A DNA stretch of 64,000 nt from Bacteroidales bacterium (GCA_016714605.1 JADKDL010000027.1:1527-65526), one strand, 5' to 3'. Positions 1,528 through 38,056 are shown, counted from the stretch's first letter. Notes: generated from the letters alone by a model not told the origin. Numbers and translations: made by a program.

Positions 1528-3357
1528 ATCAATTCACAAACAGCATTTACTTTAATAAGGTAGCCTTCTCCCCAATATAATTTTATTAAAGAATTGAGAA
1601 AAGAAGTATTAGATTTTAAATAAAAAGAATCCAAATTTTTAACAGCATCAACCTTTTCCCAAATACTTGAGAGAGCTTGGTCTAAATTGGCATTACCGTC
1701 TAAAGGATAGCCTATAATATTCCAACCTGCTTTTAGAGAAATTGAAGGAACAATAACAGGAACAGCTTCAAACGTCATATAGTTGAGGTTTACATAATCG
1801 GTAGCACCAATCGTGATACGAAGCACTTGAATTCCAGCTTCTAATTGAATGTCATTAACCGTTACATCTTGCCAAATCTGCCAACCGCTAGTGTTTGGAA
1901 TAGCAATATCGGAAGCAATTGGGTTTCCATTTGCTGATAAGGAAATAGTTCGTCCGGCGCCATTGCAAGCAGTTCTTAGTTTAAGGTTGTATTTACCTGC
2001 TGTTGCAATATTTACGGTATATTCCAACCATTCGCCGGCAGTTGCATAGCCTATATTATAGCCAGTACCAGCATCGGTACAATTTTCAATATCAACATCT
2101 TCATCGGTACGGAAGGCTGCACCGCCTGAATTTGTTGTTGCATTGTCGAGGTATGCAGAACCATTTCCGCCCACATCGTAGTGTTCAAATTCAATTTTAC
2201 CGGGTATAGTTTGATTAGTTCCGTTATAAGCAGCTTGAGCTGGATTTACTTTAACTACAACAGGAGCTGTAGTAGATTTGTTAGCTGAATTATCGGTAGC
2301 CACTGCGGTAATAGAATATGTACCTGCAGCAACGTTTGTCCAAGAGTAGGAGTAAGGTGAAGAGGCATCTTCACCAAGTTTGGTTGTGCCATTGTAGAAC
2401 TCTACCTTAGATATAGAACCTGTAGTAACCGTTGCTGTTGCAGAAATTGTAATAGAAGCAGGTGCTGTAAAAGCTGTGGTAGCTGTAGGAGCGGTTAAAG
2501 TAACGGTAGGTCCTGCAACCATTGGTTGTAGAGCCAACATTTTTCTCTGCATAGCGCACACCGAAAGTTCTATTTCCTGCAGAAGTAAAATGATATTGAT
2601 CTTTTCCTGGTAAGCCATTTGCAGAAATTACATAAGAATTAGGCAATACACTTGGTAATTTAGCAATTACAGGATTGTGACCAGAACATGCACCACCCTG
2701 ATTTTGGTATAATAATTCACCCGAAAGTAAAGGTGTTTTTGTAGGATCCAAACCAAGGTCGGCAATGAGGTTATCATAAACCGCTTTTACTTTGGTAGGC
2801 CATGTTTGGTCTCCAGTATTCGACTCGCCTTGATGCAATAAAATACCTTTGATAACTCCTGTTTGTTGAGCTTTCTTTGCCAATTCTAATAGCCATGCAT
2901 AAGCACTGCCGTTATATTTAGTAGGGACATTATTATATGTGTCTAGACCGGCGTATCCGGTTTTTCCGAAGAGTTCAATTTTACAACCCGGAACTGCAAC
3001 TACTACCACACCAATTTTAATGTTTGAAGGACGATTGGCTACCATAGTTCTTCCGAAATAATCGGCAGGGCCAATTCCGCCTGTACAGCCCCAAAGAGGA
3101 GGAACAGCATCATACCAATTTCCTGCTTTTTGAACAGAACAGTCTTGCGGTTTCATAAACTGAAAACGACTATCAACTGTTTTATCTTGATTTTCAATAT
3201 CTCCGGCACCAGCCATATTTGATTGTCCGAAACAAAGATATATGTGATAATTAGGGTCTTGAGCAAAAACATTTATGCTTAATAGAATTAGGCAGATGTT
3301 GAGAATTGCTCTGAAAGAATTTAAATTTTTCATTTGTTTTTTCTTAGTTATAGTCAA
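1518..3357 (-). CDS. Secreted carbohydrate esterase of the DUF303/sialate-O-acetylesterase-like family (GQSNMAG motif), followed by an Ig-like module, a CBM6 and the conserved ~75-aa C-terminal module. A frameshift sits in an A5 homopolymer near 2545-2552.
   Basis: Signal peptide plus LCFGQSNMAGAG, HQGESN and YHFTSAGNRTFGVRYAEK in ORF 2407..3357. Shifting frame at gagaaaaatg gives ...RYAEKMLALQPMVAGPTVTLTAP, continuing into ORF 1518..2618. That ORF carries the Ig-like SISKVEFYNGTTKLGEDASSPYSYSW, the CBM6 GKIEFEHYDVGG...GEWLEYTV, and ends in the KAGWN module. Confidence 0.7.
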
Positions 3358-3514
3358 AATAGAATACTTATTCTAAATATTTCAAAAGTTTAACTTTTAA
3401 AAAAAAAGGTGACGTAAAGTCACCTTTTTATGGAATTGTTTCCCCTAGTTTTCTTGATAGATATTGGGTATGTTAGAGAAACGTGTTAAAGAACATTTTT
3501 TGAAGCAAGACAAA

Positions 3515-5877
3515 TTATCTTACAATCCAGTCGAGTTCGCAAGGCACAGATACTTTTACATAATAACCTTTGCTATACTCAACATTTAAAAGAGAGTTAA
3601 GTGCTCCGGCAGATTTATCGTAAAATCCGTCGAAGTTTTTAACTACCAATACATTTTGCCAAATACTAGAAAGCGCTTTTGCAATTTCAGTACTTCCACT
3701 TATCGGACAACCAATCATATTCCAACCAGCTTTAAGTTTAATTGTTTTAGGAGCAGCATTTACTTTTATAGATACAGCAGTGCTTGTAGCAGTTTCGCCA
3801 TTATTGTCAGTAGCCACAGCGGTTAAACTATAAGTACCTGCAGCCATACCCGACCATTCGTAAGAATAGAACATATAGCATCGGTATTGAGTAGGGTAGT
3901 ACCAGCGTAGAATTTCACACTTGCAATAGTTCCGGTAGCACTTGCAGCAGTAGCTGTAATAGTAATTTTTTGGTTTGCAGTAAATTCAGCATTTGCAGCC
4001 GGAGCAGTAATACTTACTGTAGGAGGTGTAGAAGAAGATGCAAATGTCATGTAGTTTAGGTTCACATAATCTGTAGCACCAATAATAACTCTAATAACTT
4101 GAGGACCTGCTGATAGTGTAACGTCTTTAACGGTTACATCTTGCCAAATTTGCCAACCTGTAGTATTAGGAATAGCCACATTAGGAGCAACAGTAACGCC
4201 ATTTGCTTGAATATCTACAGTTCTACCATCGCCATTACAAGCAGCACGTATTACGAGGTTATATTTTCCTGCATTGGCAACATTTACAGTATATTCCAAC
4301 CATTCTCCAGCAGTAGTCCATCCAAGATTATATCCAGCTCCAGCATCGGTACAGGTTTCTAAATCAACATCTTCATCGGTACGGAAGGTTGCACCACCAG
4401 TGTTGGTAGCTTCACTATCCATGTATGCTGAACCATTACCACCAACATCGTAGTGTTCAAATTCAATTTTACCCGGTATAGCATGAACAGTACCGTTATA
4501 AGCACCTTGAGCTACGTTTACTTTTACAGCAACAGCAGCAGATGTTGTTTTATTTGCAGCGTTGTCTGTAGCAACCGCTGTTAAAGTATAAGATCCAAGA
4601 GCAACATTTGTCCAAGTATATGAATACGGAGAAGAAGCATCTTCGCCAAGTTTTGTAGTACCATTGTAGAATTCTACTTTAGAAATAGTTCCATCGGCAT
4701 CGGTAGCTGTTGCATTTATAGTAATAGAAGCAGGAGCTATGAAGGCAGCATTCGCAGTAGGAGCAGTTATTGAAACCACAGGCAATGAACCATTTGCACA
4801 ATCAGCAAAAGGACCGGGAGCTGGACAACATGCAAGACTAGGTTTGCCTGCAAAATATGACCTTAACCAAGTCATTGCTGGTCTATCACCTCCACTGGCA
4901 TACATGATTCCTGAATCTGTACCACCTGCTCCAGTTACTTTGTTGCCACCAATCCATGTAGAACCTTGAATATAACCCCATAAGGTAATACCAGCCACAT
5001 GTGGATGTTCCCAAGCAACAGGTATTAATGTAGAATAAACCTGTTGTTGTTTTGCTTCGTTCGGATCTGCAGTTGCATCAAATTCGGTAATGTGAATCGG
5101 CAAACCAGTCTGATTCCAAATCTGGTCAATACATGCTTTGAAATTAGCTGCTGTTAAATTTTCAATGCCATGTGCTTGCAAACCAACACCATCAATCAGG
5201 TTTTTCTTACCATCGGTTAGGTTCGGTGCATTTTTAATTGCATTGGCCATTGCAATATATGGAGTACGGCAATTATTCCAATTCATTTCAATATTATACT
5301 CGTTTATCAACAAAGTAGCAGTTGGAAAATATTTTCTTGCTATCTGGAAACACACTATCGCCCAACCATATTGGTTATTTTGGTCGCCTGAATTTGCAGG
5401 CTGAGCTTTATAAAGAGCTGTTAGAGCACTTTTTAAATTTGTAGCTACAGCAGTATTGATTGGTTCGTTCAATACGTCAATCATTTTCAAGCCTCCCATT
5501 GGATTGTAATGGTCTGCAACTGCTTTGAAATAAGGCTCTATAGCTGCTTGAATAGTTGCTGATGTAGCACTCGCTACCCATCCTGGTGTTTGAGCTCCCC
5601 ACATAAGGGTGTGGTATTTAAATATTCCATTATTATTTTTCGCCCAGTTAAACCCTCTATCAGACCCTGTAAAGTTATAAGACCCTCTGGTTCCCTCAAC
5701 CGATTGCCATTTAGACTCGTTTTCCATTGTCATCTGGTTCCAATTGGCAGTATAATTACTCCATACTGTACCAGCAGTAATATTGCCTAGATACTTACCT
5801 TTGCACTTCCCTATTTGTGCATTTGATGATAATCCGATAACGAATAACATCAAAAATAATATGTATAACTTCTTCAT
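3515..5877 (-). CDS. GH10 endo-1,4-beta-xylanase followed by Ig-like, CBM6 and a second Ig-like module, then the conserved C-terminal module. A frameshift lies near 3876-3890.
   Basis: Signal peptide MKKLYILFLMLFVIGLSSNAQ. GH10 motifs HTLMWGAQTPGWV, VLNEP, LLINEYNIE, GVGLQAHG, IHITEFD. CBM6 GKIEFEHYDVGG...AGEWLEYTVNV. ORF 3515..3874 continues ...YSYEWSGMAAGTYS...IKLKAGWNMIGCPI... in a different frame. Confidence 0.8.
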
Positions 5878-5941
5878 ATTTATTGTGTTTTATTATTTTT
5901 TATTGATTTTTTATTGTTTTATATAATTAGTATTACGTTTA

Positions 5942-8514
5942 TTATTTCCAAGTTAATTCACATGCAGCATTTACTTTTACAAGATATCCTTTGCCCCAAT
6001 CAAGTTTTAATAATGTATTAAACATTGTAGCTTGAGATTTATCATAGAAAGCTTCCATATTTTTTACAACCAACACATTAGACCAAATACTTGCAAGAGC
6101 AGTTTCAATATTTGTACTGCCATCAATAGGGCAACCAATTAAGTTCCAACCAGCTTTAAGTTTAATTGATAATGGTGCAGCATTTACTTTTACTGCAACA
6201 GCTGTACTTGTTGTAGTTGCGCCGCTATTATCTGTAGCTACTGCAGTAATACTGTAGCTACCAACTGCCATACCCGACCATTCATAAGAATATGGAGCAG
6301 ATTCGTCGGTGTTGAGAAGTGTTGTGCCAGCGTAGAATTTTACACTTGCAATAGTTCCGGTAGCACTTGCAGCTGTAGCCGTTATAGTAATTTTTTGATT
6401 TGTAGTAAATTCAGCATTTGCAACAGGTGCAGATATACTTACCGTAGGAGGGGTAGAGGCTGGCGCAAATGTCATGTAGTTTAGATTTACATAATCGGTA
6501 GCACCAATAGTAACTCTAATTACCTGAATTCCTGCTGTTAAAGTAACATCTTTAACGGTTACATCTTGCCATATTTGCCAACCTGTAGTATTAGGAATAG
6601 CCACATTAGGAGCAACTGTAACGCCATTAGCTTGAATATCAACCGTTCTTGCATCTCCGTTACAAGCAGCACGAAGTACGAGATTATATTTTCCGGCTGT
6701 AGTAACATTTACGGTATATTCCAACCATTCACCTGCTGTAGCATAGCCCAAATTATATCCGGTACCTACATCGGTACAGTTTTCCAAGTCAACATCTTCA
6801 TCGGTACGGAAAGCTGCACCACCCGAGTTTGTTGTTGCATTGTCGAGGTAAGCAGAGCCATTACCACCAACATCGTAGTGTTCAAATTCAATTTTACCCG
6901 GTATTGCCCATGGTGTACCGTTGTATGCGGCTTGTGCTGACTTACTTTAAAAGCGACACAAGATTGTCCAGTTTTTCCACCACTACTAGTTGCCACAGCA
7001 CAAATTGAATACGAGCCAGCGGCAACATTCGTCCAAGTATATGAATAAGGAGAAGTTAAATCTTCTCCCAAAAGCATTGTGCCATTATAAAATTCAACCT
7101 TAGTTATTGTTCCTGTTCCAACAGTTGCAGTAGCATTTATAGTAATTGAAGCAGGAGCTGTATAAGAAGCATTATTAGCAGGAGCTGTGATTGTAACTAC
7201 AGGAGCATCGGTAGTAGCTTTTCCTACAAATGTGGTAACGCTAGCAGCATCAAGAGTAACAGAAAGTGAAGTACTCGCATTTATATTTGTACCTTTTGCA
7301 ATGTTTTTTGAACCTGATGTTGTATAGTTTTCCCATGTAGTAACTTGTGTACCTGGTATAGAAATAGTTAATGTTTGTGCTGTTGTATTTTTATTAACAA
7401 CTACAATAACTACATCATTATCTTTTTTATATGCTGATACGAATACATTAGTTTTAGGATTTTTAGTAGCATCAACTCTTACGTAACCCGGACGAACCCA
7501 TTTAGAAAACTGAGCCATGCAATAGCCTCTTTTGGTAGCTGTGCCAGGAGTAGTAGAAATAGTATTTCCAGCTTTATCTTTTCCGTCATGTATCATTGCA
7601 TAGTATCTTCGTAATGGCCAGAAAACGTAGGTTTGAAAATTACCATCAACCATTGCATAGTGTATATGTTCAGCTACTTTAAGAGCATGACGAGCATCAT
7701 TTATATAATTGTCAGTCCAAATGTTTGCATCGTAATCGCTATCAGTATAAACCTCTGTCATCCAAAGTTCTTTACCTGCTCCCTTTTGCTCAAAAAGCGC
7801 GTAAGGAAAGTCTTTATATTGTGTACCATATAAATGCGTACCAAAAATCGATACTTTTGAAAGAGCTGTTGCATCGTTTAAAATTGGATCATAAACTGTT
7901 TTTCTATACTGAAAAGATTCAGGTGTCATAAGTTTACATTTTATTCTATCTGCATAGCCTTTAATGAAATCAACAGATTCTTGCGGACTCCATTCAGTCC
8001 AGTCGTGAGCATAATCAGGCTCATTCTGGGTAGAAATTGCATATAATTCAACGCCTTGACCTTTCATATAGGTAACATAGCTGTTCAAGTGGTCTGCATA
8101 TTGACCATATGTAGCCGGATTAATTCTTTTCACTCCATTTACGGTGATAAACTGACCAGCTGGTGGATTCCAAGGCGAAGCAAATACATATGCACCTTGA
8201 CCATAGGCATATTTTGCAGTTTCAATACCTTGTCCCCAATTGTTCTTATTATCAGAAACAAATGTACGAAGTACTGTAAAACCTAATTGTCCGGTTCCAT
8301 TACCAAATGCAAGTTGTCTTTCAGCAGCATTCAAATCAGAATACCACTCCGGATGGTTAATACCTCCAAAACCTCGAATCACCTGTTTTGTAGATGTTAG
8401 TGTTACCGTAGCTTGACCAAACACAAGTATGCTAGAGAGCATCGTTATAAATAGTAAAAGTCTCCTTTTCATAATTTTATTTTTAAAATTTAAATTTCTC
8501 ATTTTATTAAACAC
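5942..8514 (-). CDS. GH30 (subfamily-8-like) glucuronoxylanase/endo-xylanase followed by Ig-like, CBM6 and Ig-like modules and the conserved C-terminal module. A 1-bp frame break lies near 6935-6945.
   Basis: Signal peptide, GH30 motifs VIRGFGG and ISTQNEPD, and a beta-sandwich C-terminal domain. An Ig-like segment ITKVEFYNGTMLLGEDLTSPYSYTW follows. Past the break (agtcagcacaagcc should read AQAAYNGTPWAIPGKIEFEHYDVGG) the CBM6 and KAGWNLIGCPI tail continue in ORF 5942..6787. Confidence 0.8.
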
Positions 8515-8998: not shown

Positions 8999-11900
8999 CT
9001 AATTTTTCCTGAATTTTTCAGCATATTCAGTTGGTGTAATGCCATATTCTTTAATGAATATTCTAGAGAAATAGCGTGGGTCTGAGAAGCCTACATAGTC
9101 TGATACTTCAGAGATTCTGTATTTTCCGGTCATAAGCATGGTAGCTGCTTTTTGCATTTTTATATCTTTGATATAATCTTTGAGCGATTTTCCGGTTTTG
9201 GTTTTAAAAAGCCTCCATAATTGCGTACGACTCATACCTATTTGGTCTGCAACCATGTTGGTATTCAATAGTTCGTTAGAAATATTGTAATTAACAAATT
9301 CAAATATTCGCTTTATCATCTTATTATCGAAATCTTCCGGCAAATTAGAAAGACTATTTGTTTGAATATTTTCAATAATACTCTTTTTATATTCCAAAAT
9401 GGCATCAACCTTTTTCTTTAAAAAATAAGGGTCAAAAGGTTTTTCAATAATATCGCTGGCTCCATTTAAGTAAGCGTTGTCTTGTATGCTTTTTTCTTTA
9501 TGAGAAGTTATGAGAAGTATTGGAATATGTGAAGTTAAAGGATCATTTTTAATAATAGAGCAAATTTCTATGCCACTTATTTCAGGTAAATTAATATCGC
9601 TTATTATAATGTCGGGAATGATTTGTTGCGCAATATTTAATCCGTTTTTACCATCGGCAGCTTTAAATAATTTATAATTATGGTCAAAAATATTTTCAAT
9701 TGTATCTAAAACCTCTGCATTATCATCGATAATTAATATGGTAGCAATTTCTTTTTTAACATCTTCATCAGTAGCTGACGAAGATGGCAGGCTATCGTTT
9801 TTGGCAGCAATTACAACTTTCGTTTTGCCTTTGGGCAGAGAGGCGGTGAATACAGAGCCATTACCTTCGTTACTAGTAATTGTGAGCGTTCCTTGAATTT
9901 TTTTCTAAAAAACTTTTACAAATTCTTAGTCCTAGTCCGGTACCTTTCTCGTTTTCGGTTCCATAAGAAGAAAATACCGCTTCATTCCTAGAAAGAATTG
10001 TGTTAATAAGTTCATTACTCATGCCTATGCCGGAGTCTATAAATGTAGTATCAATAGTATTTTCTAGCTCTTGAATAAATACTATAATGGTTCCGTTTTG
10101 TTCTGTAAATTTAATTGCATTTGACAGAATATTTCTAAATACCATACTTGCCATTCTTGGGTCAACGAGTGCATTAGAAGAATAGTCGGTATGGGTAGTG
10201 ATTGTAATTTTTTTACGAGTAGCGTTGCTTGTCTCTAGAGAAATGGCATCGTCAAGGAGAACTTCTAGGTTTATTTCTACCGGAGAAGCTTGTAGTTTCG
10301 CATCTTCGCTTTGTACCCAATCAAGAACGGTCATCATTTGAGTGATGAGGGCGTTTACTGAATTAAGAAGGGTGGAGGTGTATTTTCTAAATTTTTCATA
10401 TTTTGAGTTATCGCTTTCTTTGTGTAGCAAAGTTGAAATACCAAGAATTCCGTTGAGTGGATTTTTAAAATCGTGTGCCAAAACACTAATTAATTGGTCT
10501 TTTGAATTTAATACCTCCTTAAGTTGTTGGTTCTTCATTTCAATAACCAATTGTTTTTCATTCAATATTTCATTTTTGTGAAACAGAGATTCTGTTCTAA
10601 TTTGCACTTGTTGTTCAAGCATTTTATTTACTTTTCTTAAAGAAGAAAAACGGTAGAATACAAAACCGGTAATAGCTAACGCAACAAAAAGTGATAAACC
10701 AAAACGAAACCAAATAGTTCGCCACCAAGGCGGCACTACAGTTATGAGTACCGAATTTATCTGACTCCAATTTCCTTTTTCTGTACAAGCTTTTACCTGA
10801 AAAGTATAAGTACCCGGTTGCAAAGCTGAGTAGTTTGCATGTCTGCTGTTTGCATCTGCTTGAATCCAGGCATCTTCCAAACCATCAAGTTTGTATGCAT
10901 ACATTATATTCCTATTATTTAGAGGATCTATGCTTGCAAAATTTATAGTAAAAGAACTTAAGTAGTGAGGTAAGGTAATCTCATTGGCGTATCCAATTGC
11001 TACAGGAAAGGGAATATCTTTACCATACAATTCACGAGGGTTTATCGGCATTCCAAATATTTTCACATCGGTGAGTACCGGAGTTTTTGCTTTATTCTTT
11101 TTCGCTATTTCTCTAGGGTTAAAGGAGAATATGCCGCCATCATCGCCAAAGTAAAGATTACCGTCGGTATCTCTGAAGAGGAGTTTGTGAAATATTTGCT
11201 GGTAACCCCGTCGGAGGCATCGAAATGAGTGAAGGTATTTTGTCTGATATCATATTTGGTTAAGACCGATGAAGTGAACCAAATATTACCATCTAAATCT
11301 GATTGTACCGATTCTATGACATTAGATTTTAAGCCGTCTTCGACTTTGAAAGCAGTGAAAATTCCGGTTTTCTTTTCAAAGCAATTAAGTCCGCCGCCGT
11401 TTGTACCTATCCAAATATTGCCGTTGCCATCATCATGCATAGATAATATAACGTTGTGGGTTATTGAATTTTTATCGTTGTTTGTTGTGTACTTTATTAT
11501 TGTTGGTTTAGGAGCCGTAGGATTTTTCACCTGAACCAAACCATTTCCAAATGTACCGAGCCACAAGGAGCCGTCTGAGTCTTCATAGAGGGTATAAATG
11601 ATGTTTTTATTTACATCGGTAGAATCTAAACTAATTATATAACGTTTGTTGTTTATATAGTCAAAACCTTCCATACCGTTGCCCCAGTGTGTTACCCAAC
11701 AAATGCCCCGCGAGTCGGAATAAATGTTTTGATGTATGGCTGCCGAGAACAATTTCTTTTTTTGTTTTGTATTGAGGTTATATTTGTAAACATCAACAGC
11801 CGAAGACAATAGTAATTCGGTTGTTGAAAAGGAATTTATAGCAAATACAGGAGTGTTTGCTATAATTGTTTGTTCTTTTGTTTTTGTATCGAAAGAGAAA

Positions 11901-13021
11901 GCTCCATAGAGGTTTGAGGCTATGATATTATTTCCAATAGCACAAATACTTTTAGCATGCAGTCCGTTAAAATTCTTTATAGAAAGGGTGTAATGAGAAA
12001 AAATATTCTTTTTATTATTGAGCACAAATATACCATCATCCATGGTTCCTACCCAAATATTCCCCTCGCGGTCGCGGAAAATAGTATTGCAGATAACCTT
12101 ATCAAAATCAAAAGTAATCTTACCTGAACGATTAAATCTAGTTAATATACCATCTTCGGATAAGGTAAATAAGCCTGGGAAGCCTCCAATTATAAGCGTT
12201 CCATCGTTTGTATAGGCAACATCAGAAATGAATAAGATTTTGAAATTTTCATTATCAAGGTTTTCTTTAGGAAAGAATTTAAATTTGAGGGTTTGTGTAT
12301 TTAGCGTATAAATTCCAGCTTCGCCGGCAACAATCATTATTTCATCTTTTTTGCCCCTTTTTATACCTCTTACAAAACTCAAATTTGTGTTTTCAGGAAA
12401 TACATTTTTTATTTTCATTTGTTTGTAATCGAAACGAAACACGCCATTGGTTCCGTTTATCCATAGGTAACCGTCTAGACACTGAATAGTAAGATAGTTG
12501 TTTATTGATTTTGCAATGCTTAGAGAATCAATATTGATAATTTGGGTAGCAGTTTTAGTGTCGGCTTCGAATTTCACCAGATAATTTTCGCGTATCAGTC
12601 CCCAAATATTTCCATCATCGTCGGCACAGAGTTTTTTAGAACCTGTTTTTTTGTCAAATGCATTACCGAATAGGTGAATTTTATGAAACGATTCAAATTG
12701 TGGATTGAAATAAAAAAAGCCTATATCGGTAGAAATCCATAGAATGCCGTTTTTGTCAACAACAAGATCGTTTATGAGAGCAGCTTTAAGGGAGAGGCTG
12801 TCTTTGCTGTTAGAAAGGAAAGATTTGAAGCTATAACCATCAAATCTGTTTAAGCCGTTTGTAGTACCAATCCAGATAAAGCCTTTGTTGTCTTGAGTAA
12901 AGCAGGTAATTGTTTTGTGAGAAATACCGTCGGCAGTGGAGAAGTTTTTAAAAGAATAGTCATTCCCCACAGAATAGAAGTAGTGTAATAGTAAAAAGAG
13001 TATTAAAGTAAAATACTTCAT
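8999..13021 (-). pseudogene. Hybrid two-component system (HTCS) sensor/regulator with two beta-propellers, a Y_Y_Y domain, HisKA, HATPase, a receiver and an AraC-type HTH. It is split into four pieces by a 10-bp tandem duplication (9501-9520) and single-base indels near 9893 and 11170.
   Basis: ORF 11105..13021 carries the propeller repeats (NGLNRFDG, IWIGT, LWLGT). ORF 9873..11066 has PGTYTFQVKA (Y_Y_Y), a TM segment, the H-box LISVLAHDFKNPLNGILG and GTGLGLRICK. Correcting the frame at 9893 gives ...GTLTITSNEGNGSVF, then the receiver ATILIIDDNAEVLDT...ISDINLPEISGIE...PILLITSH. The receiver stops at the duplicated ttatgagaag ttatgagaag. Removing one copy reads straight into KEKSIQDNAYLNGASDIIEKPFD...EYKKSIIEN and the AraC HTH of ORF 8999..9397. 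Confidence 0.8.
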
Positions 13022-13189
13022 AAGATAAGGCTATGTTTATGAAAAGGAGTTTTCTTAAACTACTTAAACACATAAAAATATAAAAAGTTTATAATTGATA
13101 AAAATTTATTTTTTATTGGTGCAGAAGCGATATTCTATTTTGCAGGAGCGATAACCTTTCCAATTTTTCATTACCCTTCCCCTTTTTTA

Positions 13190-13440
13190 GCCGAAACTTC
13201 CATTTAAAAAACGAAAGCTTCCATCTATTTTACCAAAGCTTCGGTCTTTTTCATGAAAGCTTTCGCTATTTAAACCGAAGCTTTGGTTCTAATCATGGAA
13301 GCTTCCGCATAAACAACCGAAGCTTCCGTTATTTTTGCGGAAGCTTCGGTATAAAAGATGAAAGCTTCGGTCAAAATAACCGAAGCTTTCGTTGTTTTCA
13401 TGAACATTTCGGTCAAAATGACCGAAATGTTGCTTTTTAT
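13190..13440. repeat. Array of 12 units at an exact 21-bp period, each centred on AAGCTT (core CCGAAGCTTCGG). Units alternate in orientation, giving about 42-bp palindromic super-units. The array lies 170-420 bp upstream of the HTCS start.
   Basis: AAGCTT hexamers at 13215, 13236, 13257, 13278, 13299, 13320, 13341, 13362 and 13383, exactly 21 bp apart, with degenerate end units at 13194, 13404 and 13425. Flanks alternate between atGAAAGCTTCGGTCaa and aCCGAAGCTTTCGTTgt, which are reverse complements. Confidence 0.85.
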
Positions 13441-13614: not shown

Positions 13615-14643
13615 TTAAAACCTAAAACCTAATTGTACTGCGATATTAAAAGAATGAACGAATTCATATTCAATAACAAAAAATTCATCGGAAGTTCTGT
13701 CTATTTCATATTCTCCTACATAACGAAGATTATATTTTATATCTAAACCAATACCAAAATATTTTTTGCGTAACCTGAAAAGAGTGGTTATATTAAGAAC
13801 TTCACTATCCTTTAAATATGTTTGATGAATTGTTAAGCCGTTTACCAAGCCAAATTCCAATGCCGCTTTATCATTTTTACTTATAGTAAAATATGGTCCA
13901 AATTGCAATATGTCAAAATTAAGTTTTTCATAAAAAACAAAAAGTTGAATATTGGATCTTGTAATAATACCAAATCTATTTCTATCAGTAAAATTTTTAA
14001 AAATGAAATATAACCTAATGTATAACCTAAAATTTGATCATTTTCATCGTTAGATGTAATACTAAGCCCATTGCATGCTTCAAAATAAAATCCTGATTTA
14101 TTTACAATATATGTATTAATTGTTCGATAAGGAGCTACGTTACTTTGCAATGAATCATCTGCCTCATATCTAAATTTATAAGATTTACTACTTGAATCAT
14201 CAATTACTACTTTTTTTTCTGAATTTAAAGTTGCATCAGTGGAATATAAATTAATAATTTGCAATTTTAAAGATTCTGCTTGAGCATACTCATTTTCCTT
14301 TACTAATTTTCTTATTTGCAAACGCAATTCCTTCTCTTTTAAAAAATCTATTTTTTAAAGAAGAGTCTTCAGGTCGTGAAGCATGTCTTATCTCTTTTTT
14401 TAACTCTTTTATTCTTTTTTCATTTATAGTTTGTGCTGATGCACTGAAAAGAGCTAACGTACATAGTACTATTAGTAAAAACTTTTTCATTTGTTTTTTT
14501 TTATAGATGAATATTTTTTTGTGTTGAACTGTTATATTTTCTTTTGGAATAGTATGAGTCTGTTTTTTGATAAAAATACTATTTAGTATTTCTAGGATTA
14601 AAACCCATACTTGCCAATGCTGTGGATTAAAACTTAGCTCCAA
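13615..14643 (-). pseudogene. Decayed copy of the cassette A-type gene (paralog of 15549..16427), split into three ORF fragments by frame changes.
   Basis: ORF 14290..14643 has the signal peptide MKKFLLIVLCTLALFSASAQ plus INEKRIKELKKEIRHASRPEDSSLKNRF. ORF 13881..14327 has LKLQIINLYSTDATLNSEKKVVIDDSSSKS. ORF 13615..13908 ends IAVQLGFRF. All are collinear with A2. Confidence 0.7.
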
Positions 14644-15439
14644 CTCTTACTTCTAGAGATTTGGATGAAAGAGGTGTCTCTTCTCTTAGAGAGCCCATAT
14701 TATTTGAAAAATTAAAACATATACTTACTCCAAATCTACCATTTCTAATTCCTACATAAGGAATAAAACTATATAAATCAATTTTACCTGGTTCATTAGT
14801 ATAATATAATCCATTAAAAAACATATCTTTCCCAAGTAAAATTCCCATTTCTATGGCACGTTTATCTTTTATGGGAAATACAAACTGAGGTCCAACTTGA
14901 AATACATTCCAAATACGACCATTTCTACGAGACATTGTACAAATTGAGGTTCTTACGTTTATACCAAATTTAGCACCTCTATTAAATTTTGCTAAATAAC
15001 CCATATAACCCATACCGATACCCATACCTAAATCACCAATATCTTCAAATATTAAAGCATTATTGAAAAAATCGGCGTAAAATGCAGATTTTGTCATTTT
15101 GTGAATTTTTTCGACATCTAATTTTTCTACAGTTGAAATATTATAATATTGGTTATCATATACATTCACTATATTTGATTGAATTTTAGAGGATTCTAAC
15201 TTAGTAATAGCAGCTTCTAACTGTTTAATGTTTACAGAATCATTCTTTTTATATGCTTCTTTCAATTGAACACGTAAATTCTTTTCAGGTTTAAGTTGTT
15301 CTGCTTTTGCAAATTCGTCATTAATAAGGGCATTCTGAATTTGTAATTCGATTTTCCTTAATCGTTTTTTATTTTCACTCTGAGCGTACAGACCGAGTGA
15401 AATTATTAATACCAAAACTACCAAACTAATTCTTTTCAT
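14627..15439 (-). CDS. Cassette B-type protein, copy 1: small secreted protein with an N-terminal Lys/Glu-rich coiled-coil-like segment and a beta-rich C-terminal domain ending in Phe (looks like an outer-membrane beta-barrel). Function unknown.
   Basis: Signal peptide MKRISLVVLVLIISLGLYAQ, KKRLRKIELQIQNALINDEF, glycine/aromatic-rich alternating segments, C-terminus EVRVGAKF. Paralogous to 16493..17308 and 18753..19577. Confidence 0.65.
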   Translation of the reverse strand: MKRISLVVLVLIISLGLYAQSENKKRLRKIELQIQNALINDEFAKAEQLKPEKNLRVQLKEAYKKNDSVNIKQLEAAITKLESSKIQSNIVNVYDNQYYNISTVEKLDVEKIHKMTKSAFYADFFNNALIFEDIGDLGMGIGMGYMGYLAKFNRGAKFGINVRTSICTMSRRNGRIWNVFQVGPQFVFPIKDKRAIEMGILLGKDMFFNGLYYTNEPGKIDLYSFIPYVGIRNGRFGVSICFNFSNNMGSLREETPLSSKSLEVRVGAKF

Positions 15440-15548
15440 CTGTTTTATAAAATTTAAATTTAATTTGAGAACTATCTTCCTATACTACTTGACAGAATTT
15501 AACAGTAAATTCTGATTTTTTTTAATTTTTAAGCTTTCAAGAAATAGT

Positions 15549-16427
15549 TTAAAACCTAAAACCTAAATGAATTCCGAAATTAAAATATCTAACAAATTTA
15601 CTTCCTAGAATATAATTATTAGTAATAGTCTCTATTTCATACACATCCATTTTATGAAGATTATATTCAAGATCTAAACCAATACCAAAATATTTTTTGC
15701 GAAACCTGAAAAGTGATGTTAGATTAAGAACTTCAAAATCCTTTAATTCAGTATAAGGTTTTAGTGTCAATCCTGTTACTAAACCAAATTCAAAAGCTGA
15801 TTTGTCATTGTTACTAATAGTCAAATATGGTCCTAATTGCAATATGTCAATATTTAATTCTTCATTAGGTACACGAATTTGAATATTGGATCTGGTAATG
15901 AATCCTAATCTATTTCTGGAAGTAAGATTTTTAAAATAAGAAATACGACCAAATGAATAACCCCAGATATGATTCACTTCACTCTCATATGATGCAATAC
16001 TAAGTCCACTAAACCCTTCGAAAAAAAATCCCGATCTATTTACATTATATGTTTTAATAGTTCGATAAGGAGCTACGTTATTTTGCAATGAATCACCTGT
16101 TTCATATCTAAAATTTGAAGATTTACTACTTGAATCATCAATTGCAACTTTTTTTTCTGAATTTGTAGTTGCGTCAGTGTAATATAAATCAATAATTTGC
16201 AATTTTAAAGATTCTGCTTGAGCATATTCTTTTTCCTTTACTAATTTTTTGATTTGCAAACGCAATTCCTTCTCTTTTAAAAATCTATTTTTTAGGGAAG
16301 AGTCTTCAGTACGTGAAACATGTCTTATTTCTTTTTTTAACTCTTTTAATCTTTTATCGTTTAGAGATTGTGCTGAGGCACTGAAAAGTGTTAACGTACA
16401 TAGTACTATTATTAAAAACTTTTTCAT
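15549..16427 (-). CDS. Cassette A-type protein, copy 2: secreted coiled-coil plus beta-rich protein ending ...HLGFRF. Function unknown.
   Basis: Signal peptide MKKFLIIVLCTLTLFSASAQ, NDKRLKELKKEIRHVSRTEDSSLKNRF, alternating hydrophobic beta-strand-like segments, terminal Phe. Paralogous to 17414..18658 and the decayed 13615..14643. Confidence 0.65.
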   Translation of the reverse strand: MKKFLIIVLCTLTLFSASAQSLNDKRLKELKKEIRHVSRTEDSSLKNRFLKEKELRLQIKKLVKEKEYAQAESLKLQIIDLYYTDATTNSEKKVAIDDSSSKSSNFRYETGDSLQNNVAPYRTIKTYNVNRSGFFFEGFSGLSIASYESEVNHIWGYSFGRISYFKNLTSRNRLGFITRSNIQIRVPNEELNIDILQLGPYLTISNNDKSAFEFGLVTGLTLKPYTELKDFEVLNLTSLFRFRKKYFGIGLDLEYNLHKMDVYEIETITNNYILGSKFVRYFNFGIHLGFRF

Positions 16428-16492
16428 CTGAATTTATTTTTGAAATATGAATATTTTTGAAATTATTGAATCTATATTTTTATCCTTTTAAA

Positions 16493-17308
16493 TTAAAATT
16501 TACCACCAACTCTTATTTCAATAGATTTTGATGAAATATGCTGTTCGTATTTTTTTACTTCATTCCAAATATCTGAAAAATTAATGCAGAGTGAGACACC
16601 AAATTTTTTATATCGAATACCAACATAAGGAACAATACTGGTTTCATTCACTTTTTCAAAAAAATACGAATCTTTTCCTATTAAAATTCCTGTTTCTATG
16701 GCACGTTTATCTTTTATGAGATATAATAACTGGGGACCGGCTTGAAATACATTCCAAATATAATCATTTTCAAAGAGTAGTTTGCTTACAGAAGATCTTG
16801 CATTAATACCTATTTTCGTTTTATTATTAAGCTTTGCTACATAACCTACATAACCTAAACTAACTCCTATACCTAAATCAGCTTTGTAGTATTTGTGGTT
16901 ATTTATATATTGATTAAACGTTATACAATAATTGTAAAATTCTACGTAAAATGCAGATTTTGTCATTTTGTGAATTTTTTTGACATCTAATTTTTTATTG
17001 TCAACAGATGTAATACTATTATATCTTTTATTATTATCATTTTCAATATTTGATTGAGAAGCATATAATTTAGTAATAGATGCTTCTAGCTGATCTATGC
17101 TCACAGAATCATTCTTTTGATATGCTTTTTTCAATTGAACACGTAAACTTTTTTCAGTTTTAAGCTGGTCTGCATAAGCATATTCATCATTTATGAGGGC
17201 ATTCTGAATTTGCGTATCGATTTTCCTTAATCGTTTTTTATTTCCTCTTTGAGCGTACAGCCCGAGTGAAATTATTAATACCAATACAATCAAACTAATT
17301 CTTTTCAT
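16493..17308 (-). CDS. Cassette B-type protein, copy 2.
   Basis: About 80% identical to 18753..19577 by eye (MKRISLIVLVLIISLGLYAQRGNKKRLRKIDTQIQNALINDEY...IEIRVGGKF). Confidence 0.65.
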   Translation of the reverse strand: MKRISLIVLVLIISLGLYAQRGNKKRLRKIDTQIQNALINDEYAYADQLKTEKSLRVQLKKAYQKNDSVSIDQLEASITKLYASQSNIENDNNKRYNSITSVDNKKLDVKKIHKMTKSAFYVEFYNYCITFNQYINNHKYYKADLGIGVSLGYVGYVAKLNNKTKIGINARSSVSKLLFENDYIWNVFQAGPQLLYLIKDKRAIETGILIGKDSYFFEKVNETSIVPYVGIRYKKFGVSLCINFSDIWNEVKKYEQHISSKSIEIRVGGKF

Positions 17309-17413
17309 CTGTTTATTTTTTTAATTATGTTCTATTTTTGAACTATCATATAATACTTGTCAGAATTTAACAATATGTTATTTTTTTTTATTATTCTTAA
17401 TCTATCAAAAAGT

Positions 17414-18658
17414 TTAAAACAACCTTGCACCAACTTGCAGTCCGATATTTAATTTTTGAAGATTGCAATCAATATCAAAACCAATAGCAAAATTTGAAAT
17501 ACGAATCCTAAAAAGAGCGGTTAGATTTAAAATATCAATAGGAATATCGTCCTCATACCTAGGCGAGATTGCTAATCCGTTTACAAAGCCAAACTCAAAT
17601 GCAATTTTATCATTTTTACTAAATGAAAAATATGGTCCAAATTGAAATATATCTATATTAACCTCATCAAATCTAAATTCACTTATATCTGAAATAAAAT
17701 ATTGAACATTTGATCTGGCAATAAAACCATACCTATTTCTAGAGGATAAGTTTTTTAAATATGAAATACAACCAAATGAAAATCCTAAACCGACAGTTGC
17801 AACATTGTAACTACCTATTCCAAGCCCATTATATCCTTCGAGATAAAATCCGGATCTATTTATAATATCACTAGGATTAATTCTTTTATAAAGAACTGCT
17901 TTTTTTGGATATAAATAATTTTCCTTATGGGTAGATTTTAAAGTATTACTTATTGAATCTTGAATAATAACATTTTTTTCAGAAATTACCGATGAATCAT
18001 TAGAATTTAATTGAATAATAAATAATCTTAATGTTTCTGCGGTTGTCTTAATTTCTTGGTTTATATGTATTCTATTTTGAATGCATATTTGCTGCTCTTT
18101 TGTATATTTATTAATTAGAATAGAATCGTTTATATTTGAAGCAAGAGTTATTTGATTATTCAAGTCTCTTATTCTTTTTTCATTATTAGTCTCAGAAAAC
18201 TCAGCAGAAAGAAATTCTCCTTTTTTTGATTTTAAATAATAAGCTTGAGTAAATTTTTTTTCCTTCCTCAATTTAATACTTAGAATATTCAATTCGTGCC
18301 TAAGATTAAGTTTGTTCTTTTTGGTAGTTTCTATAGGACTTGAAACTTGAGGTGTATCTTTATTTAAGGCTTCAAGTTTTTTTTCAGATATGGTTTCTTT
18401 ATATGCAGATAGATATAAATCAATAATTTGCAATTTTAAAGAATCTACTTGAGCTTTCTTTTTTTCTTGTTTAAATTTTCTAATTTGTAAGCGCCAATCT
18501 AGTTCTTTTACATATCTATTTTTTATTGTAGAATCTTCAAGATTTGAAGCAAGATTTATTTCATTTATTAGCCTGATTATTCTTTTTTCGTTTACAGATT
18601 GTGCTGAGGCACTGAAAAGAGCTAACGTACATAGAAAAATTAATAAAAATCTTTTCAT
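17414..18658 (-). CDS. Cassette A-type protein, copy 3, carrying an internal duplication of the N-terminal coiled-coil segment. C-terminus ...LQVGARLF.
   Basis: Signal peptide MKRFLLIFLCTLALFSASAQ. Two successive NEKRI(R/I)xLNxxI(N/T)LASN(L/I)(E/N)DS... segments. Beta-rich tail collinear with A2. Confidence 0.65.
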   Translation of the reverse strand: MKRFLLIFLCTLALFSASAQSVNEKRIIRLINEINLASNLEDSTIKNRYVKELDWRLQIRKFKQEKKKAQVDSLKLQIIDLYLSAYKETISEKKLEALNKDTPQVSSPIETTKKNKLNLRHELNILSIKLRKEKKFTQAYYLKSKKGEFLSAEFSETNNEKRIRDLNNQITLASNINDSILINKYTKEQQICIQNRIHINQEIKTTAETLRLFIIQLNSNDSSVISEKNVIIQDSISNTLKSTHKENYLYPKKAVLYKRINPSDIINRSGFYLEGYNGLGIGSYNVATVGLGFSFGCISYLKNLSSRNRYGFIARSNVQYFISDISEFRFDEVNIDIFQFGPYFSFSKNDKIAFEFGFVNGLAISPRYEDDIPIDILNLTALFRIRISNFAIGFDIDCNLQKLNIGLQVGARLF

Positions 18659-18697
18659 AAATAATAAATTAGTAAGTATAAATATTTTTAAAATTTT

Positions 18698-18740
18698 TAA
18701 ATTGGGGGCGCGACTCTAAGTCGCACTCCTAGTTTGAAAA
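18698..18740. repeat. Nested palindromic element of about 42 bp (core GCGCGACTCTAAGTCGCACTCC), copy 1. It is GC-rich in an AT-rich intergenic region between cassette genes.
   Basis: aaattgggggcgcgactctaagtcgcactcctagtttgaaaa. The inner perfect stem is gcgact/agtcgc. The near-identical copy is at 23169-23210. Confidence 0.7.
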
Positions 18741-18752
18741 TTGCTGATGAAT

Positions 18753-19577
18753 TTAAAATTTACCACCAACTCTTATTTCAAAAGATTTTGAAGAAATATG
18801 CGTCTCATTTTTTGATGCGCCCCAAGAATCAGAAAAATTAAGACAGAATGAGACACCAAATTTATTATATCGAATACCAACATAAGGAGCTATACTGGTT
18901 TCTTTCACTTTTTCAAAAAAATACGAATCTTTTCCTATTAAAATGCCTGTTTCTATGGCACGTTTATCTTTTATGAGATATAATAACTGAGGACCTACTT
19001 GAAATACATTCCAAATATAATCATTTGTAAAAAGCAATGTGCAAAAAGACGATCTTACGTTAATACCTAATTTTGTTTTACTATTAAGCTTTGCTACATA
19101 ACCTATAAAACCTAAACTGGCACCTATACCTAAATCAGCTTCGGTAATAGGGTAGTTGTAGGATTCGATCTTTTTATATGTATCATATATTATTATATTA
19201 TTGTAAAAATCTATATAAAATGCAGATTTTGACATTTTATGAATTTTTTTTACATCTAATTTCTTATTATCTAAAGATGTAATACTATTATAGCTGTTAT
19301 TAATATCTTTTTCAATATTTGATTGAGAAGCATTTAACTTAGTAATAGTATCTTCTAACTGAATTATGCCCACAGAATCATTCTTTTTATATGCTTTTTT
19401 TAATTCTACTCGTAAACTTTTTTCAGTTTTAAGCTGCTCTGCATAGGTAAATTCATCATTTATGAGAGCATTCTGAATTTGTAAATCGATTTTTCTTAAT
19501 CGTTTTTTATTTTCACGCTGAGCGTACAGCCCGAGTGAAATTATTAATACCAATACAAGTAAACTAATTTTTTTCAT
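18753..19577 (-). CDS. Cassette B-type protein, copy 3.
   Basis: MKKISLLVLVLIISLGLYAQRENKKRLRKIDLQIQNALINDEF...FEIRVGGKF. Confidence 0.65.
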   Translation of the reverse strand: MKKISLLVLVLIISLGLYAQRENKKRLRKIDLQIQNALINDEFTYAEQLKTEKSLRVELKKAYKKNDSVGIIQLEDTITKLNASQSNIEKDINNSYNSITSLDNKKLDVKKIHKMSKSAFYIDFYNNIIIYDTYKKIESYNYPITEADLGIGASLGFIGYVAKLNSKTKLGINVRSSFCTLLFTNDYIWNVFQVGPQLLYLIKDKRAIETGILIGKDSYFFEKVKETSIAPYVGIRYNKFGVSFCLNFSDSWGASKNETHISSKSFEIRVGGKF

Positions 19578-20204
19578 CTGTTTTTTTTAAAAATTTAATG
19601 CTTGTTTCATTTACGTTTATTATTTTATTAAACATATTAAAATTTTGCTAATTCTATCACTAAAACACATTTTATGTATCTAATTCCGTAGTATCTCTCA
19701 AAATTTTATTTGTTTTTTCTTTTAAGCCTTATAGTATCTTAATATAATATTTTAATTGTAAGGCAATTGCATTATAAGTATCTAAATACAAAAGACCAAT
19801 TAAAAATAGATGTAACTTTTTTCTTAACTGGTTTATTTAGATTTATACATTATTAAATAATTAAAACTATTATATATTTGTATTTTGTATGTAGATAATA
19901 AGACATCATTTTCGTTTCCATTTTTATTTTAGAAGTTGTTAAATTTTGATTGAAATATAATTTAAACAACTTAATATCATTGATTTAGTTATGGTTTTTT
20001 TTATGCAATAATTGTTGACTTAGCTAGATTTTGGGCAAAGCAATAGCTCGTGGTAGCCTTTGCTAACCATTGTCATATTCTTTATAAATTTTTTTTCTAT
20101 TCATCGTATTTTAAATACGATTCATCTACCACATTCTACAGCTCAACTATTTATATTTTTTATGGAGTGATTCAGTGTGCATATTTGCTTAAAAATAAGT
20201 AGAT

Positions 20205-22342
20205 ATGAAAACATTACAAATATTACTTTGCTTTTTGAGTACGTACAGCGTAATAGGTCAAACAACCATACAAGGAAGCATTACCGATAATATGAAAGAT
20301 GTGATGATTGGAGCTAATGTTTTTATTAAAGATTGCTTTGATGGAACTACTACAGATACTTTGGGAAACTATTCATTTACCACCACGAAACAAGGGCTTC
20401 AAACTATAGTAGTTAGTTATTTGGGCTATGAAACCTATATGCAAAACATTGAGCTAGGAGGTGAAAAATCAATTCTACTCAATATTGTAATGCAACAGAG
20501 CAATGCACAATTAGATGCCGTAATTGTGAGTGCGGGAACATTTGAAGCGTCGGACTCCAAGAAATCGGTTTCGCTCAAACCTATTGATGTGGTTACGGTT
20601 GCCAGTTCGGTAGGCGATTTGGTTGGTGCCTTGGCTACACTGCCCGGTACGCAGCGCACCGGCAGCGATGGCTATCTGATAGTACGGGGTGGCGATAATA
20701 CCGAAACCCGAACATTTATTGATGGTTCGTGTGTAGAAAAAGCCATACACTTCGCATACGCCCGATTTGCCATCAAGAGGACGATTTTCGCCAATGATTT
20801 TTAAGGGTACAATGTTTTCTACCGGTGGTTTCTCAGCTCAGTACGGACAGGCTTTATCTTCAATTTTGGAACTAGAAACGCTTGGTTTGGCAGAGAAGAA
20901 TCAAGCATCGTTATCGGTTATGAGTGTTGGTGTAGGCGCTTCGCTAAGTCTGAAAACCGATAGATTCTCTATAACTTCGGAAGGCACATATACCAATATG
21001 TCGCCATACTATTCTCTTTCAGGCTCTGACGTTGCTTGGACTGAAATGCCCTCTACTTTGAGCAATCTTACCACAGCAAGAATTAAAACAGGTAAACATG
21101 GAATGTTGAAAACGATGATTCAAATATCGAAAAATGGTAGTGGTATGTTGTATCCTAATCTTGATACGAGCAATAATGATTCGCTCTCGCTAGAAAATGC
21201 GAATATATATGTGAATAATTCTTATCAAACATCTGCCGGACAAAATACGATTGTAGGTATAAGTACTGGTTTTATGTATGATGTTGATGAATTACAAATA
21301 GGTTCTATTGCCTTGCAAACCAACATAACAGCTTTTTCTGCTAGACTTTGGGCTAAGTCGGTTGTAAATAAAACAAACATTCGCTATGGTATTGAGACCA
21401 CGCAAAAAGCATATACACAAAACTATGAAAATACACAAGATACTCTAAAAGCTACGATGCAGTTTTCTCAACCAATATATGCTACTTATTTGGAATTTGA
21501 GAACACCCTAGCCAAGCGAATCATGGTGAGACATGGTTATAGGTATGAATATTCAAAAATAAATAATGAGAACACAATTTCACCACGCATTAGTGTGGCT
21601 TATAAGATAAACGCACTCAGTCAGCTATCGTTTGCATGGGGCATTTTCAGACAGTTGCAAGCAGATGATTATATGAAATTCAATAATTCGTTGCCCTCAT
21701 CGCAAGCATTGCAATATATTGTCAATTATCAAATAAAGAAAAATGATAGACTGTTGCGAACCGAGGTGTATTACAAATCGTACGCTAAACTTATACAATA
21801 CACACAGCTCAACAATCCCAACCCAAATCTATATTCAAGCACCGGCAGTGGAGATGCTTACGGAATAGATGTTTTTTACAAAGACGCAAAAACGATTAAG
21901 AATGCCGATTTTTGGATATCATATTCATATATAAAAACCCAGCGGAAATATAAAGACTATACGAAGTTTGTGCAGCCCGATTATGTATCGCCACATTCGG
22001 TAAATGTTGTTTACAAACACTTTGTTCCGAAGCTTAAAACACAATTTGGCTTGTCATATACTTATGCATCAGGAAAAATGTACAACAATCCGAATCAGAA
22101 CGAATATATGTCGTCGAAACTGGAATAGCACGAACGATTTATGTCTCAGTCTGAGTTATTTAACAACCATATTTAAAAAGGCTGTAATAGTTCATGCATC
22201 GGTTTCTAACATATTTGGTATTGACAATGTTTATGGCTACCGATATGCTACCGAGCCAAATAAAGAAGGGGTATATGCATCGAAGCCGATAACACCTGTA
22301 GCAAAGCGGATGTTTTTCATTGGAATATTTATCACGTTATAA
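20205..22342 (+). CDS. TonB-dependent outer-membrane receptor with a carboxypeptidase-regulatory-like N-domain, plug and barrel. It is not SusC-type. Two frame changes split it, near 20740-20800 and 22000-22130.
   Basis: Signal peptide; TIQGSITDNMKDVMIGANVFIKD...LGNYSF; plug DAVIVSAGTFE...GDLVGALATLPG...GYLIVRGG. Barrel-like alternating segments follow. The third fragment ends with a typical receptor C-terminal region (GIDNVYGYRY...FFIGIFITL). Confidence 0.7.
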
Positions 22343-37734: not shown

Positions 37735-38056
37735 TGGTAAAATTTAATATAGTATAATGTTAAATTGTTGAATATTAGAATTCTATTTTCTTTAAATCTT
37801 CAATAAGCTTTCCGTATTTCAAAAAGTCATGGCTTTACACGAATTATGTTTGTAAAAATAAACCACTTAATTTCAATGAGTCAAGCCTAAAATTATGTAA
37901 TTAAAGTAATTTTTAATATTGGTAAATACCTCAAATATAGGAATAATAACTATTAAATAATTGGAAAATCGAATTTAATAGTTTTTTTCATTGCAAATTT
38001 ACGTTATAAGACACTCCGTCACTTTAAGGATATTTACAAATATATTGATGGGGCCA

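Follow-up and report, generated by a model that had tools for sequence, protein, structure and literature searches.

What kind of protein is encoded by the run of six small genes in one stretch of Bacteroidales DNA, and why are there six of them? The question is raised by positions 13,615-19,577 of a 64,000-nt sequence from a Bacteroidales bacterium (GCA_016714605.1, JADKDL010000027.1:1527-65526). This whole stretch is called the window here, and positions are counted from its first letter. The six genes lie on the minus strand in the transcriptional order B3-A3-B2-A2-B1-A1, with spacings of 65-136 nt. A preliminary description made from the sequence alone had reported six alternating minus-strand genes, and five of them are indeed intact open reading frames (ORFs) with exactly the ends it gave. 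It had further taken them for a tandemly triplicated cassette of two different proteins. We propose instead that one uncharacterised family of small outer membrane proteins, each combining a barrel anchor with a periplasmic helical module, has probably expanded here in tandem in a lineage-specific manner, and that the six paralogues represent two subfamilies, A and B. In transcriptional order the genes are:

18753-19577, minus strand: B3, 274 aa, an ORF with signal peptide, helical module, linker, predicted 8-stranded barrel and terminal Phe; matches positions 1-270 of the family hidden Markov model (HMM) at E 8e-93.
17414-18658, minus strand: A3, 414 aa, an ORF with signal peptide, three tandem 68-aa helical modules, linker and predicted barrel; the family HMM matches it twice.
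16493-17308, minus strand: B2, 271 aa, with predicted signal peptide 1-19, predicted mature N-terminus at Gln20, predicted helices at about 21-83, a disordered stretch at 86-113 and eight predicted strands at 117-270.
15549-16427, minus strand: A2, 292 aa, built as B2, with predicted helices to about residue 91 and eight strands at 131-291 (AlphaFold2 model, Foldseek).
14627-15439, minus strand: B1, 270 aa, which has diverged furthest among the B copies (58-59% identity to B2 and B3).
13615-14490, minus strand: A1, in three fragments; 291 codons after repair of two 1-nt indels.

The A and B proteins are homologous over nearly their full length (22-25% identity by BLASTP, E 1e-11 to 1e-17) and have invariant residues in common from the signal peptide through to the last residue. 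The two supposedly different proteins of the cassette therefore belong to one family, within which the sequences mark A and B as distant paralogues that form two old subfamilies. Within the B subfamily, B2 and B3 are 77% identical and B1 is 58% and 59% identical to B2 and B3, respectively, close to the earlier estimate of about 80% for the first pair and much less for B1. A2 and A3 share 59% identity in their first 95 residues and 41% in the remainder. The family HMM found no further copies in the 64-kb window. The array genes are under purifying selection, with gene-wide ratios of non-synonymous to synonymous substitution rates (dN/dS) of 0.44-0.59.

All full-length members start with M-K-(K/R), a hydrophobic stretch and (A/G/S)-Q, and no lipobox Cys was found at the cleavage site. 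Among the 14 full-length members of the family, Gln20 (alignment position 20) is nearly invariant, and the last residue is Phe in 14 of the 15 members, the barrel ending in (K/R)F. Read from the sequences, these features correspond to a Sec signal peptide and to the C-terminal aromatic residue of the beta-signal of the barrel assembly machinery (BAM). The signal-peptide-like N-termini, the helical N-terminal segment and the C-terminal Phe are thus all present as the preliminary description had them. According to the Q-rule of Bacteroidetes, signal peptidase I exposes an N-terminal Gln that is then cyclised (PMC5837995, PMC10653852). In the array family Gln directly follows the predicted signal peptidase I site and, by analogy, it is probably cyclised to pyroglutamate at the mature N-terminus.

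Structure prediction points to a small outer membrane barrel. AlphaFold2 models were built for B2 and A2 on a five-sequence alignment and each contains eight strands. The B2 model (mean pLDDT, the predicted local distance difference test, of 72, with most barrel blocks at 82-92) has helices to residue 83, disorder at 86-113 and strands at 117-270, and the A2 model (m7417305d83df; mean pLDDT 66) has helices to residue 91, disorder at 85-129 and strands at 131-291. With the A2 model Foldseek returned Ail, OmpX, OmpA and PagL at E 5e-5 to 7e-4, and NspA was also matched. Membrane barrels scored far above soluble barrels in the fold search, and the viral fold library BFVD yielded generic phage outer membrane barrels only. 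Hydrophobic and polar residues alternate along the strands. The polar side, predicted to face the lumen, holds the invariant residues G167, E205, G207 and G211, the nearly invariant R232 and the conserved R171, which is invariant among the window copies only. The residues that are invariant throughout the family (S118, G167, G191, P192, E205, G207 and G211) all lie in the periplasm-proximal half. A conserved polar face of this kind is what a narrow, closed barrel with a polar network inside it would show, and the predicted fold is that of a closed 8-stranded transmembrane barrel with both termini in the periplasm. The small outer membrane barrel with a periplasmic helical part that had been suggested earlier therefore holds at the level of prediction.

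The proteins would be exported through Sec and cut by signal peptidase I just before the conserved Gln, after which BAM would insert them into the outer membrane by means of the C-terminal strand that ends in (K/R)F. The C-terminal 155 residues or so would then form a closed 8-stranded barrel of the type found in OmpX, NspA and the transmembrane part of OmpA. Since the conserved Gly, Arg and Glu residues are predicted to face the lumen, the barrel would serve as an anchor rather than as a pore or an enzyme, and since barrels of this type have a periplasmic N-terminus, the helical module and the flexible linker would hang into the periplasm. This module carries the motif N-x-K-R-L-x-E-I-D-x-E-I ... 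E-K-x-L-R ... L-x-x-x-I-x-x-L-Y, which is predicted to be periplasmic, is the best-conserved element across the family and is kept in relatives with just 20-30% identity in the barrel. It is 65-68 aa long and occurs once in most members, three times in A3 and as a remnant of about 20 residues in the foreign member P0007. Because the helical module is the most conserved and most distinctive part and varies in copy number, we place the function there. It may mediate oligomerisation between paralogues or bind an envelope partner, and the surface-distal halves of the barrel hairpins would be the fast-changing part that is free to vary.

No well-known family had been recognised in these proteins before, and the searches bear this out. 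Neither the five intact proteins nor all 15 members gave a family match in Pfam, NCBIfam, PADLOC or PHROGs. Below threshold there was coiled-coil noise only, namely UVR (2 of the 15 members), TRAUB, DUF4635, the N-terminus of FapF and an Rz-like spanin. The Pfam profiles OmpA_membrane, OMP_b-brl, OMP_b-brl_2 (PorT-like), Opacity, Ail_Lom and OmpW were absent from the 15 members even at E values up to 10. A profile search of the PDB did not align any outer membrane barrel to the barrel domain; the sole outer membrane protein, PorV (E 1.3), aligned to residues 1-21, which is the signal peptide. An identity as anti-phage defence or phage protein was considered and rejected, since PADLOC gave no matches at E up to 1, PHROGs gave noise at the level of coiled coils (best E 0.001, an Rz-like spanin, for the foreign member P0010) and a tblastn search of phage and plasmid records had no match.

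Relatives turned out to be scarce. When B2, A2 and the 15-sequence alignment were run against 5.8 billion proteins in a word-indexed search, nothing but the window's own genes (locus tags IPO21_16745-16770) came back. An exhaustive profile search of 1.84 billion representatives with the barrel domain gave 10 matches, four from this contig and six from elsewhere (P0007-P0012, E 1e-21 to 4e-4), and these six are the only proteins found outside the contig. They have the same build, with a barrel that starts with (K/R)-S-G-F-Y and ends with (K/R)-F. Neither 185,579 species-representative genomes nor JGI metagenome contigs yielded a further member in pattern scans, and the 31 loci that matched a hand-made pattern, N-[EA]-K-R-L-x-[EA]-[IL]-D-x-E-I, included none that the HMM recognised as a family member. 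The family is new and very rare; the kind of protein, an OmpX/OmpA-like outer membrane protein, is already familiar. Small outer membrane barrels are usually deemed well charted, yet this family escapes every curated profile.

The foreign members are located on short metagenome contigs, and the family is known from about five contigs in all. Where the contig was long enough, the genes again formed same-strand tandem arrays of at least three:

L001: at least three tandem copies on a short metagenome contig, the upstream side lying beyond the contig end.
L004: at least three tandem copies on a short metagenome contig, with an unrelated 23S-IVP gene after them and the upstream side lying beyond the contig end.
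L005: exactly three copies, directly after a gene for an 801-aa CarboxypepD_reg receptor-like protein.

L001 (1-2263) and L004 (74-2521) come from related populations, one gene pair being 96% identical between them, and differ in content, as L004 has an extra paralogue (P0009) between the common genes. This indicates variation in copy number or content between close populations. In trees the paralogues cluster by locus, and the arrays have therefore expanded independently in each lineage.

The history of the array in the window is less simple than the tandem triplication that had been proposed, because the trees of the B and A genes are incongruent. Synonymous divergence (dS) among the B genes is 0.29 between B2 and B3 and 0.49-0.51 to B1; among the A genes it is 0.36 between A1 and A2 and 0.61 between A2 and A3. 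In a sliding comparison of the three B-A units, the B barrel of unit 2 reached up to 98% DNA identity with that of unit 3, and the 5' half of its A gene up to 94% with that of unit 1. Judged from these alignments, unit 2 is a mosaic with a B gene like that of unit 3 and an A gene like that of unit 1, which implies recombination in addition to duplication. A lone unequal crossover of two B-A units would yield the opposite chimera, so the mosaic calls for one more recombination or conversion event at the least. Between A1 and A2, the signal peptide, helices and linker (the 5' part) have a dS of 0.16-0.22 and the barrel one of 0.52, which points to conversion of the 5' part. The array has probably evolved by duplication together with recombination or gene conversion, such that the 5' parts stay alike and the barrels diverge. 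The internal repeat in the helical segment of A3 is likewise real, and it comprises three 68-aa modules, not the two that had been noted. It shows up as a DNA repeat family (D7) with 204-nt spacing and as the double match to the family HMM, and the 204-nt units occupy 18395-18598, 18191-18394 and 17987-18190. The first and third modules are 38% identical, and the second has degenerated (21-22%).

The preliminary description had found A1 frameshifted into three fragments and had regarded the array as partly decaying. Two 1-nt indels account for the frameshifts: near 14342-14347 a T-run is one T too long, and near 14003 one base is missing. They are the only breaks in a gene whose DNA is 81% identical to A2. 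The three fragments span positions 1-55, 49-158 and 151-270 of the family HMM and jointly cover it, so no A1 content was lost. After repair, dN/dS between A1 and A2 is 0.48, against 0.44-0.59 for intact pairs. Three conserved genes on the same contig are split as well: a DEAD-box helicase (36467-37743, minus strand), with one domain over two frames (Pfam positions 1-85 and 91-164), a hybrid two-component sensor (8999-13021, minus strand) in three frames and a CarboxypepD_reg receptor-like gene (20205-22342, plus strand) in three frames. This suggests a general load of indel errors in the assembly. A/T runs are present at every frameshift junction, including both A1 indels, but this is weak evidence because such runs number 9-15 per kb in this DNA. 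Homopolymer indels are a known residual error of Nanopore assemblies (PMC9262707), and the metagenome-assembled genome (MAG) that contains the window may be one of these. Since the A1 indels resemble those that split conserved neighbours and the dN/dS of A1/A2 matches that of intact pairs, A1 cannot be called a pseudogene on this evidence, and its frameshifts are more economically read as an assembly artefact. More generally, the overall frameshift load of an assembly should be checked before apparent pseudogenes in long-read MAGs are read as decay.

The flanks of the array contain the following features:

20205-22342, plus strand: gene for a CarboxypepD_reg / TonB-dependent-receptor-like outer membrane protein, split in three frames (Pfam CarbopepD_reg_2 E 1.7e-18; SusC/RagA N-terminus E 9e-16).
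19578-20204, no strand: AT-rich region of 627 nt between B3 and the divergent receptor-like gene, the presumed promoter region of the array.
13173-13430, no strand: about 12 copies of a CCGAAGCTTCGG-like palindrome with a strict 21-bp period and AT-rich spacers.
8999-13021, minus strand: hybrid sensor with Reg_prop, Y_Y_Y, HisKA, HATPase, Response_reg and AraC domains, downstream of the palindromes.

On the upstream side of the array, sensor kinase genes follow the receptor-like gene. In the region 19578-20204 and the array, sigma-70-type promoter matches were no commoner than in shuffled sequences, and the intergenic regions upstream of the array genes contained no exact TAnnTTTG, of which the sole exact match (13489) lies downstream of A1. 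The palindrome, which holds a HindIII site, is repeated from 185 nt downstream of A1, before the hybrid sensor gene. Its array is unique in the window (5 core matches versus 0.6 expected), matched no family in Rfam and forms long imperfect inverted repeats with terminator-like hairpins on both strands. It is possibly the terminator of the six-gene array. Between B3 and A3 (at about 18705-18730, minus strand) the very AT-rich intergenic DNA is interrupted by a short hairpin rich in GC, GCGACT-TAG-AGTCGC with CCCCC after it. This hairpin is absent from the other intergenic regions of the array and could be an internal attenuator or a terminator after B3. Beyond the hybrid sensor, positions 469-8514 (minus strand) encode a GH10 xylanase with Big_7 and CBM6/35 domains, a SASA-type esterase, an alpha-galactosidase (Melibiase_2) and more CBM6/Big_7 proteins; the cluster adjoins the sensor and appears to serve xylan utilisation and to have nothing to do with the array. 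Elsewhere in the window, 54293-60814 (minus strand) is a very long ORF of 2173 aa.

The array also differs from its surroundings in composition. Its GC content is 26.7% versus 35.9% in the rest of the window, and GC at third codon positions (GC3) is 0.15-0.18 versus 0.23-0.39. The family genes of L005 (3159-5906) have 28.3% GC versus 36.3% in the adjoining receptor gene, so the genes are poorer in GC than their neighbours at two independent loci. This may reflect foreign origin, weak codon selection or a composition specific to the family.

Divergence between the copies is concentrated on one side of the predicted barrel, and here another explanation of the locus has to be considered. The barrel was divided by the predicted topology into a proximal half, which includes the periplasmic turns, and a distal half. 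Pairwise identity in the periplasm-proximal half is 0.73 for B and 0.64 for A, versus 0.40 and 0.28 in the surface-distal half, where the indels also sit, concentrated in loops L1, L3 and L4. In all six pairs the proximal dN/dS is 0.30-0.49. Distal values range from 0.33 to 1.54 (B1 vs B2 1.10, B1 vs B3 1.54, A1 vs A3 0.97, the other three pairs 0.33-0.72); they depend on loop alignments that are uncertain and on roughly 30 synonymous sites, and in none of the six pairs are they significantly above 1, so that significant positive selection was not detected. The distal excess of non-synonymous change is nominally significant for the B1 pairs only (Fisher p 0.004 and 0.013). We read this as evidence for relaxed constraint, or possibly diversifying change, in the surface half. 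In line with a suggestion of the preliminary description, the six proteins could be a set of surface-variable receptors or decoys that is kept diverse by phages, predators or other antagonists and in which the extracellular loops carry the function. The fold would allow this, and the variable distal half, its indels and high dN/dS in some pairs, the different gene content of L001 and L004 and the atypically low GC3 of the array are all in its favour. However, variable loops are a generic trait of outer membrane proteins, dN/dS stays below 0.6 gene-wide, the PADLOC, PHROG, phage and plasmid searches had no match, and it is the periplasmic helical motif that the family conserves best, not the loops. 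We therefore regard a receptor or decoy set as rather unlikely.

A different role is suggested by the neighbourhood. The small barrels could be accessory subunits of the adjacent TonB-dependent-like protein with its CarboxypepD_reg, plug and barrel domains, with the periplasmic helices contacting the receptor or its energising or signalling partners. In L005 the 801-aa CarboxypepD_reg protein is followed by three members on the same strand with gaps of 67, 60 and 44 nt, and in the window a CarbopepD_reg_2 receptor-like gene adjoins the array. Between the two receptors a weak, colinear similarity extends over 202 aa of the N-terminal domain (26% identity) and 133 aa of the barrel (24%, E 4e-5). 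They are nevertheless barely related, and the gene points away from the array in the window but is co-directional in L005. CarboxypepD_reg receptors are, moreover, very common in Bacteroidota, so that adjacency at the two informative loci may be chance; the arrays of L001 and L004 are uninformative, as the contig ends cut their upstream side. This role seems distinctly improbable to us. The C-terminal domain might also fold as an 8-stranded barrel that is soluble or binds lipid, in the manner of avidin, YceI or lipocalins, or be an outer membrane enzyme such as PagL or PagP. PagL has its catalytic His and Ser on the barrel. Identity with the lipid A deacylase PagL was rejected, as the family has no invariant His and a PagL-like active site is not conserved; nor is there a PagL-like His-Ser pair. 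The scores of membrane barrels, far above those of soluble ones, and the lipid-facing hydrophobic alternation of the strands also speak against this group of folds, which we consider very improbable. A bolder version of the membrane anchor would be a modular envelope tether, in which barrel anchors with a variable number of 68-aa modules assemble into hetero-oligomers that set or sense the distance from the outer membrane to peptidoglycan or the inner membrane in an uncultured Bacteroidales lineage, with diversifying loops outside. The hetero-oligomers would perhaps be trimers, as L005 has three genes and the window twice that number. We offer this as a long shot; if true, the tether would do the work of Lpp or OmpA with different parts.

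The tandem expansion of one anchored family remains the reading that we prefer, and several points weigh against it. The models come from a five-sequence alignment, with mean pLDDT of 72 and 66 and a predicted template modelling score (pTM) of about 0.5, and lumen-facing and lipid-facing residues were deduced from sequence alternation alone. None of the sequence profiles searched (Pfam, NCBIfam, PDB) ties the family to a known outer membrane family. The helices span just 15-20 residues and are interrupted near residues 40-42 and 65-67; the module may therefore be a small helical bundle rather than a coiled coil. The scans for sigma-70-type and TAnnTTTG sequences did not find the promoter of the array. 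Lastly, the context of xylan-type sensor and receptor-like gene does not constrain the function, and the link of the array to either is weak.

Known systems nevertheless provide parallels for most parts of these proteins. NspA/Opa, OmpX/Ail, the transmembrane domain of OmpA, OmpW and PagL have, like the array family, a signal peptide and a C-terminal Phe, variable surface loops and conserved periplasmic turns. Several paralogues per genome, as in the array family, occur in the Opa, Ail/Lom and Bartonella Hbp families. Unlike these 8-stranded barrels, the array family has a helical module in the periplasm, at its N-terminus, together with a long linker, and its paralogues are strictly tandem. 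OmpA has a C-terminal peptidoglycan-binding domain instead of an N-terminal module. The OmpA-like proteins Pgm6 and Pgm7 of Porphyromonas gingivalis are encoded by adjacent paralogous genes and form heterotrimers; their barrel is N-terminal and an OmpA_C peptidoglycan-binding domain C-terminal. They share with the array family the origin in Bacteroidota, the adjacent paralogues and the combination of an 8-stranded barrel with a periplasmic part, and are a precedent for hetero-oligomers of paralogues, although neither OmpA_C nor OmpA_membrane of Pfam matches the array family. Tethers of the OmpM/Slp type have an N-terminal coiled coil followed by a barrel. The amyloid transporter FapF of Pseudomonas is a trimer of 12-stranded, plugged barrels that transports substrate, and its periplasmic coiled coil trimerises and may reach peptidoglycan (PMC5557850). 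FapF and the array proteins have the same order of signal peptide, periplasmic helical or coiled-coil segment, flexible linker and C-terminal barrel, but FapF has 12 strands and one long coiled coil, whereas the array family has eight strands, a closed-looking barrel and three short helical segments. A FapF-type transporter was rejected, given the eight strands and an NCBIfam score of 15.8 bits against a cut-off of 700 that covers the N-terminal 140 residues only, and no fap genes occur in the flanks of the array. If the predicted topology is true, a membrane anchor with a periplasmic helical module of variable copy number, an architecture that elsewhere belongs to far larger proteins, FapF among them, would here be realised in a compact system in which oligomerisation of envelope proteins or spanning of the periplasm could be studied in Bacteroidota.

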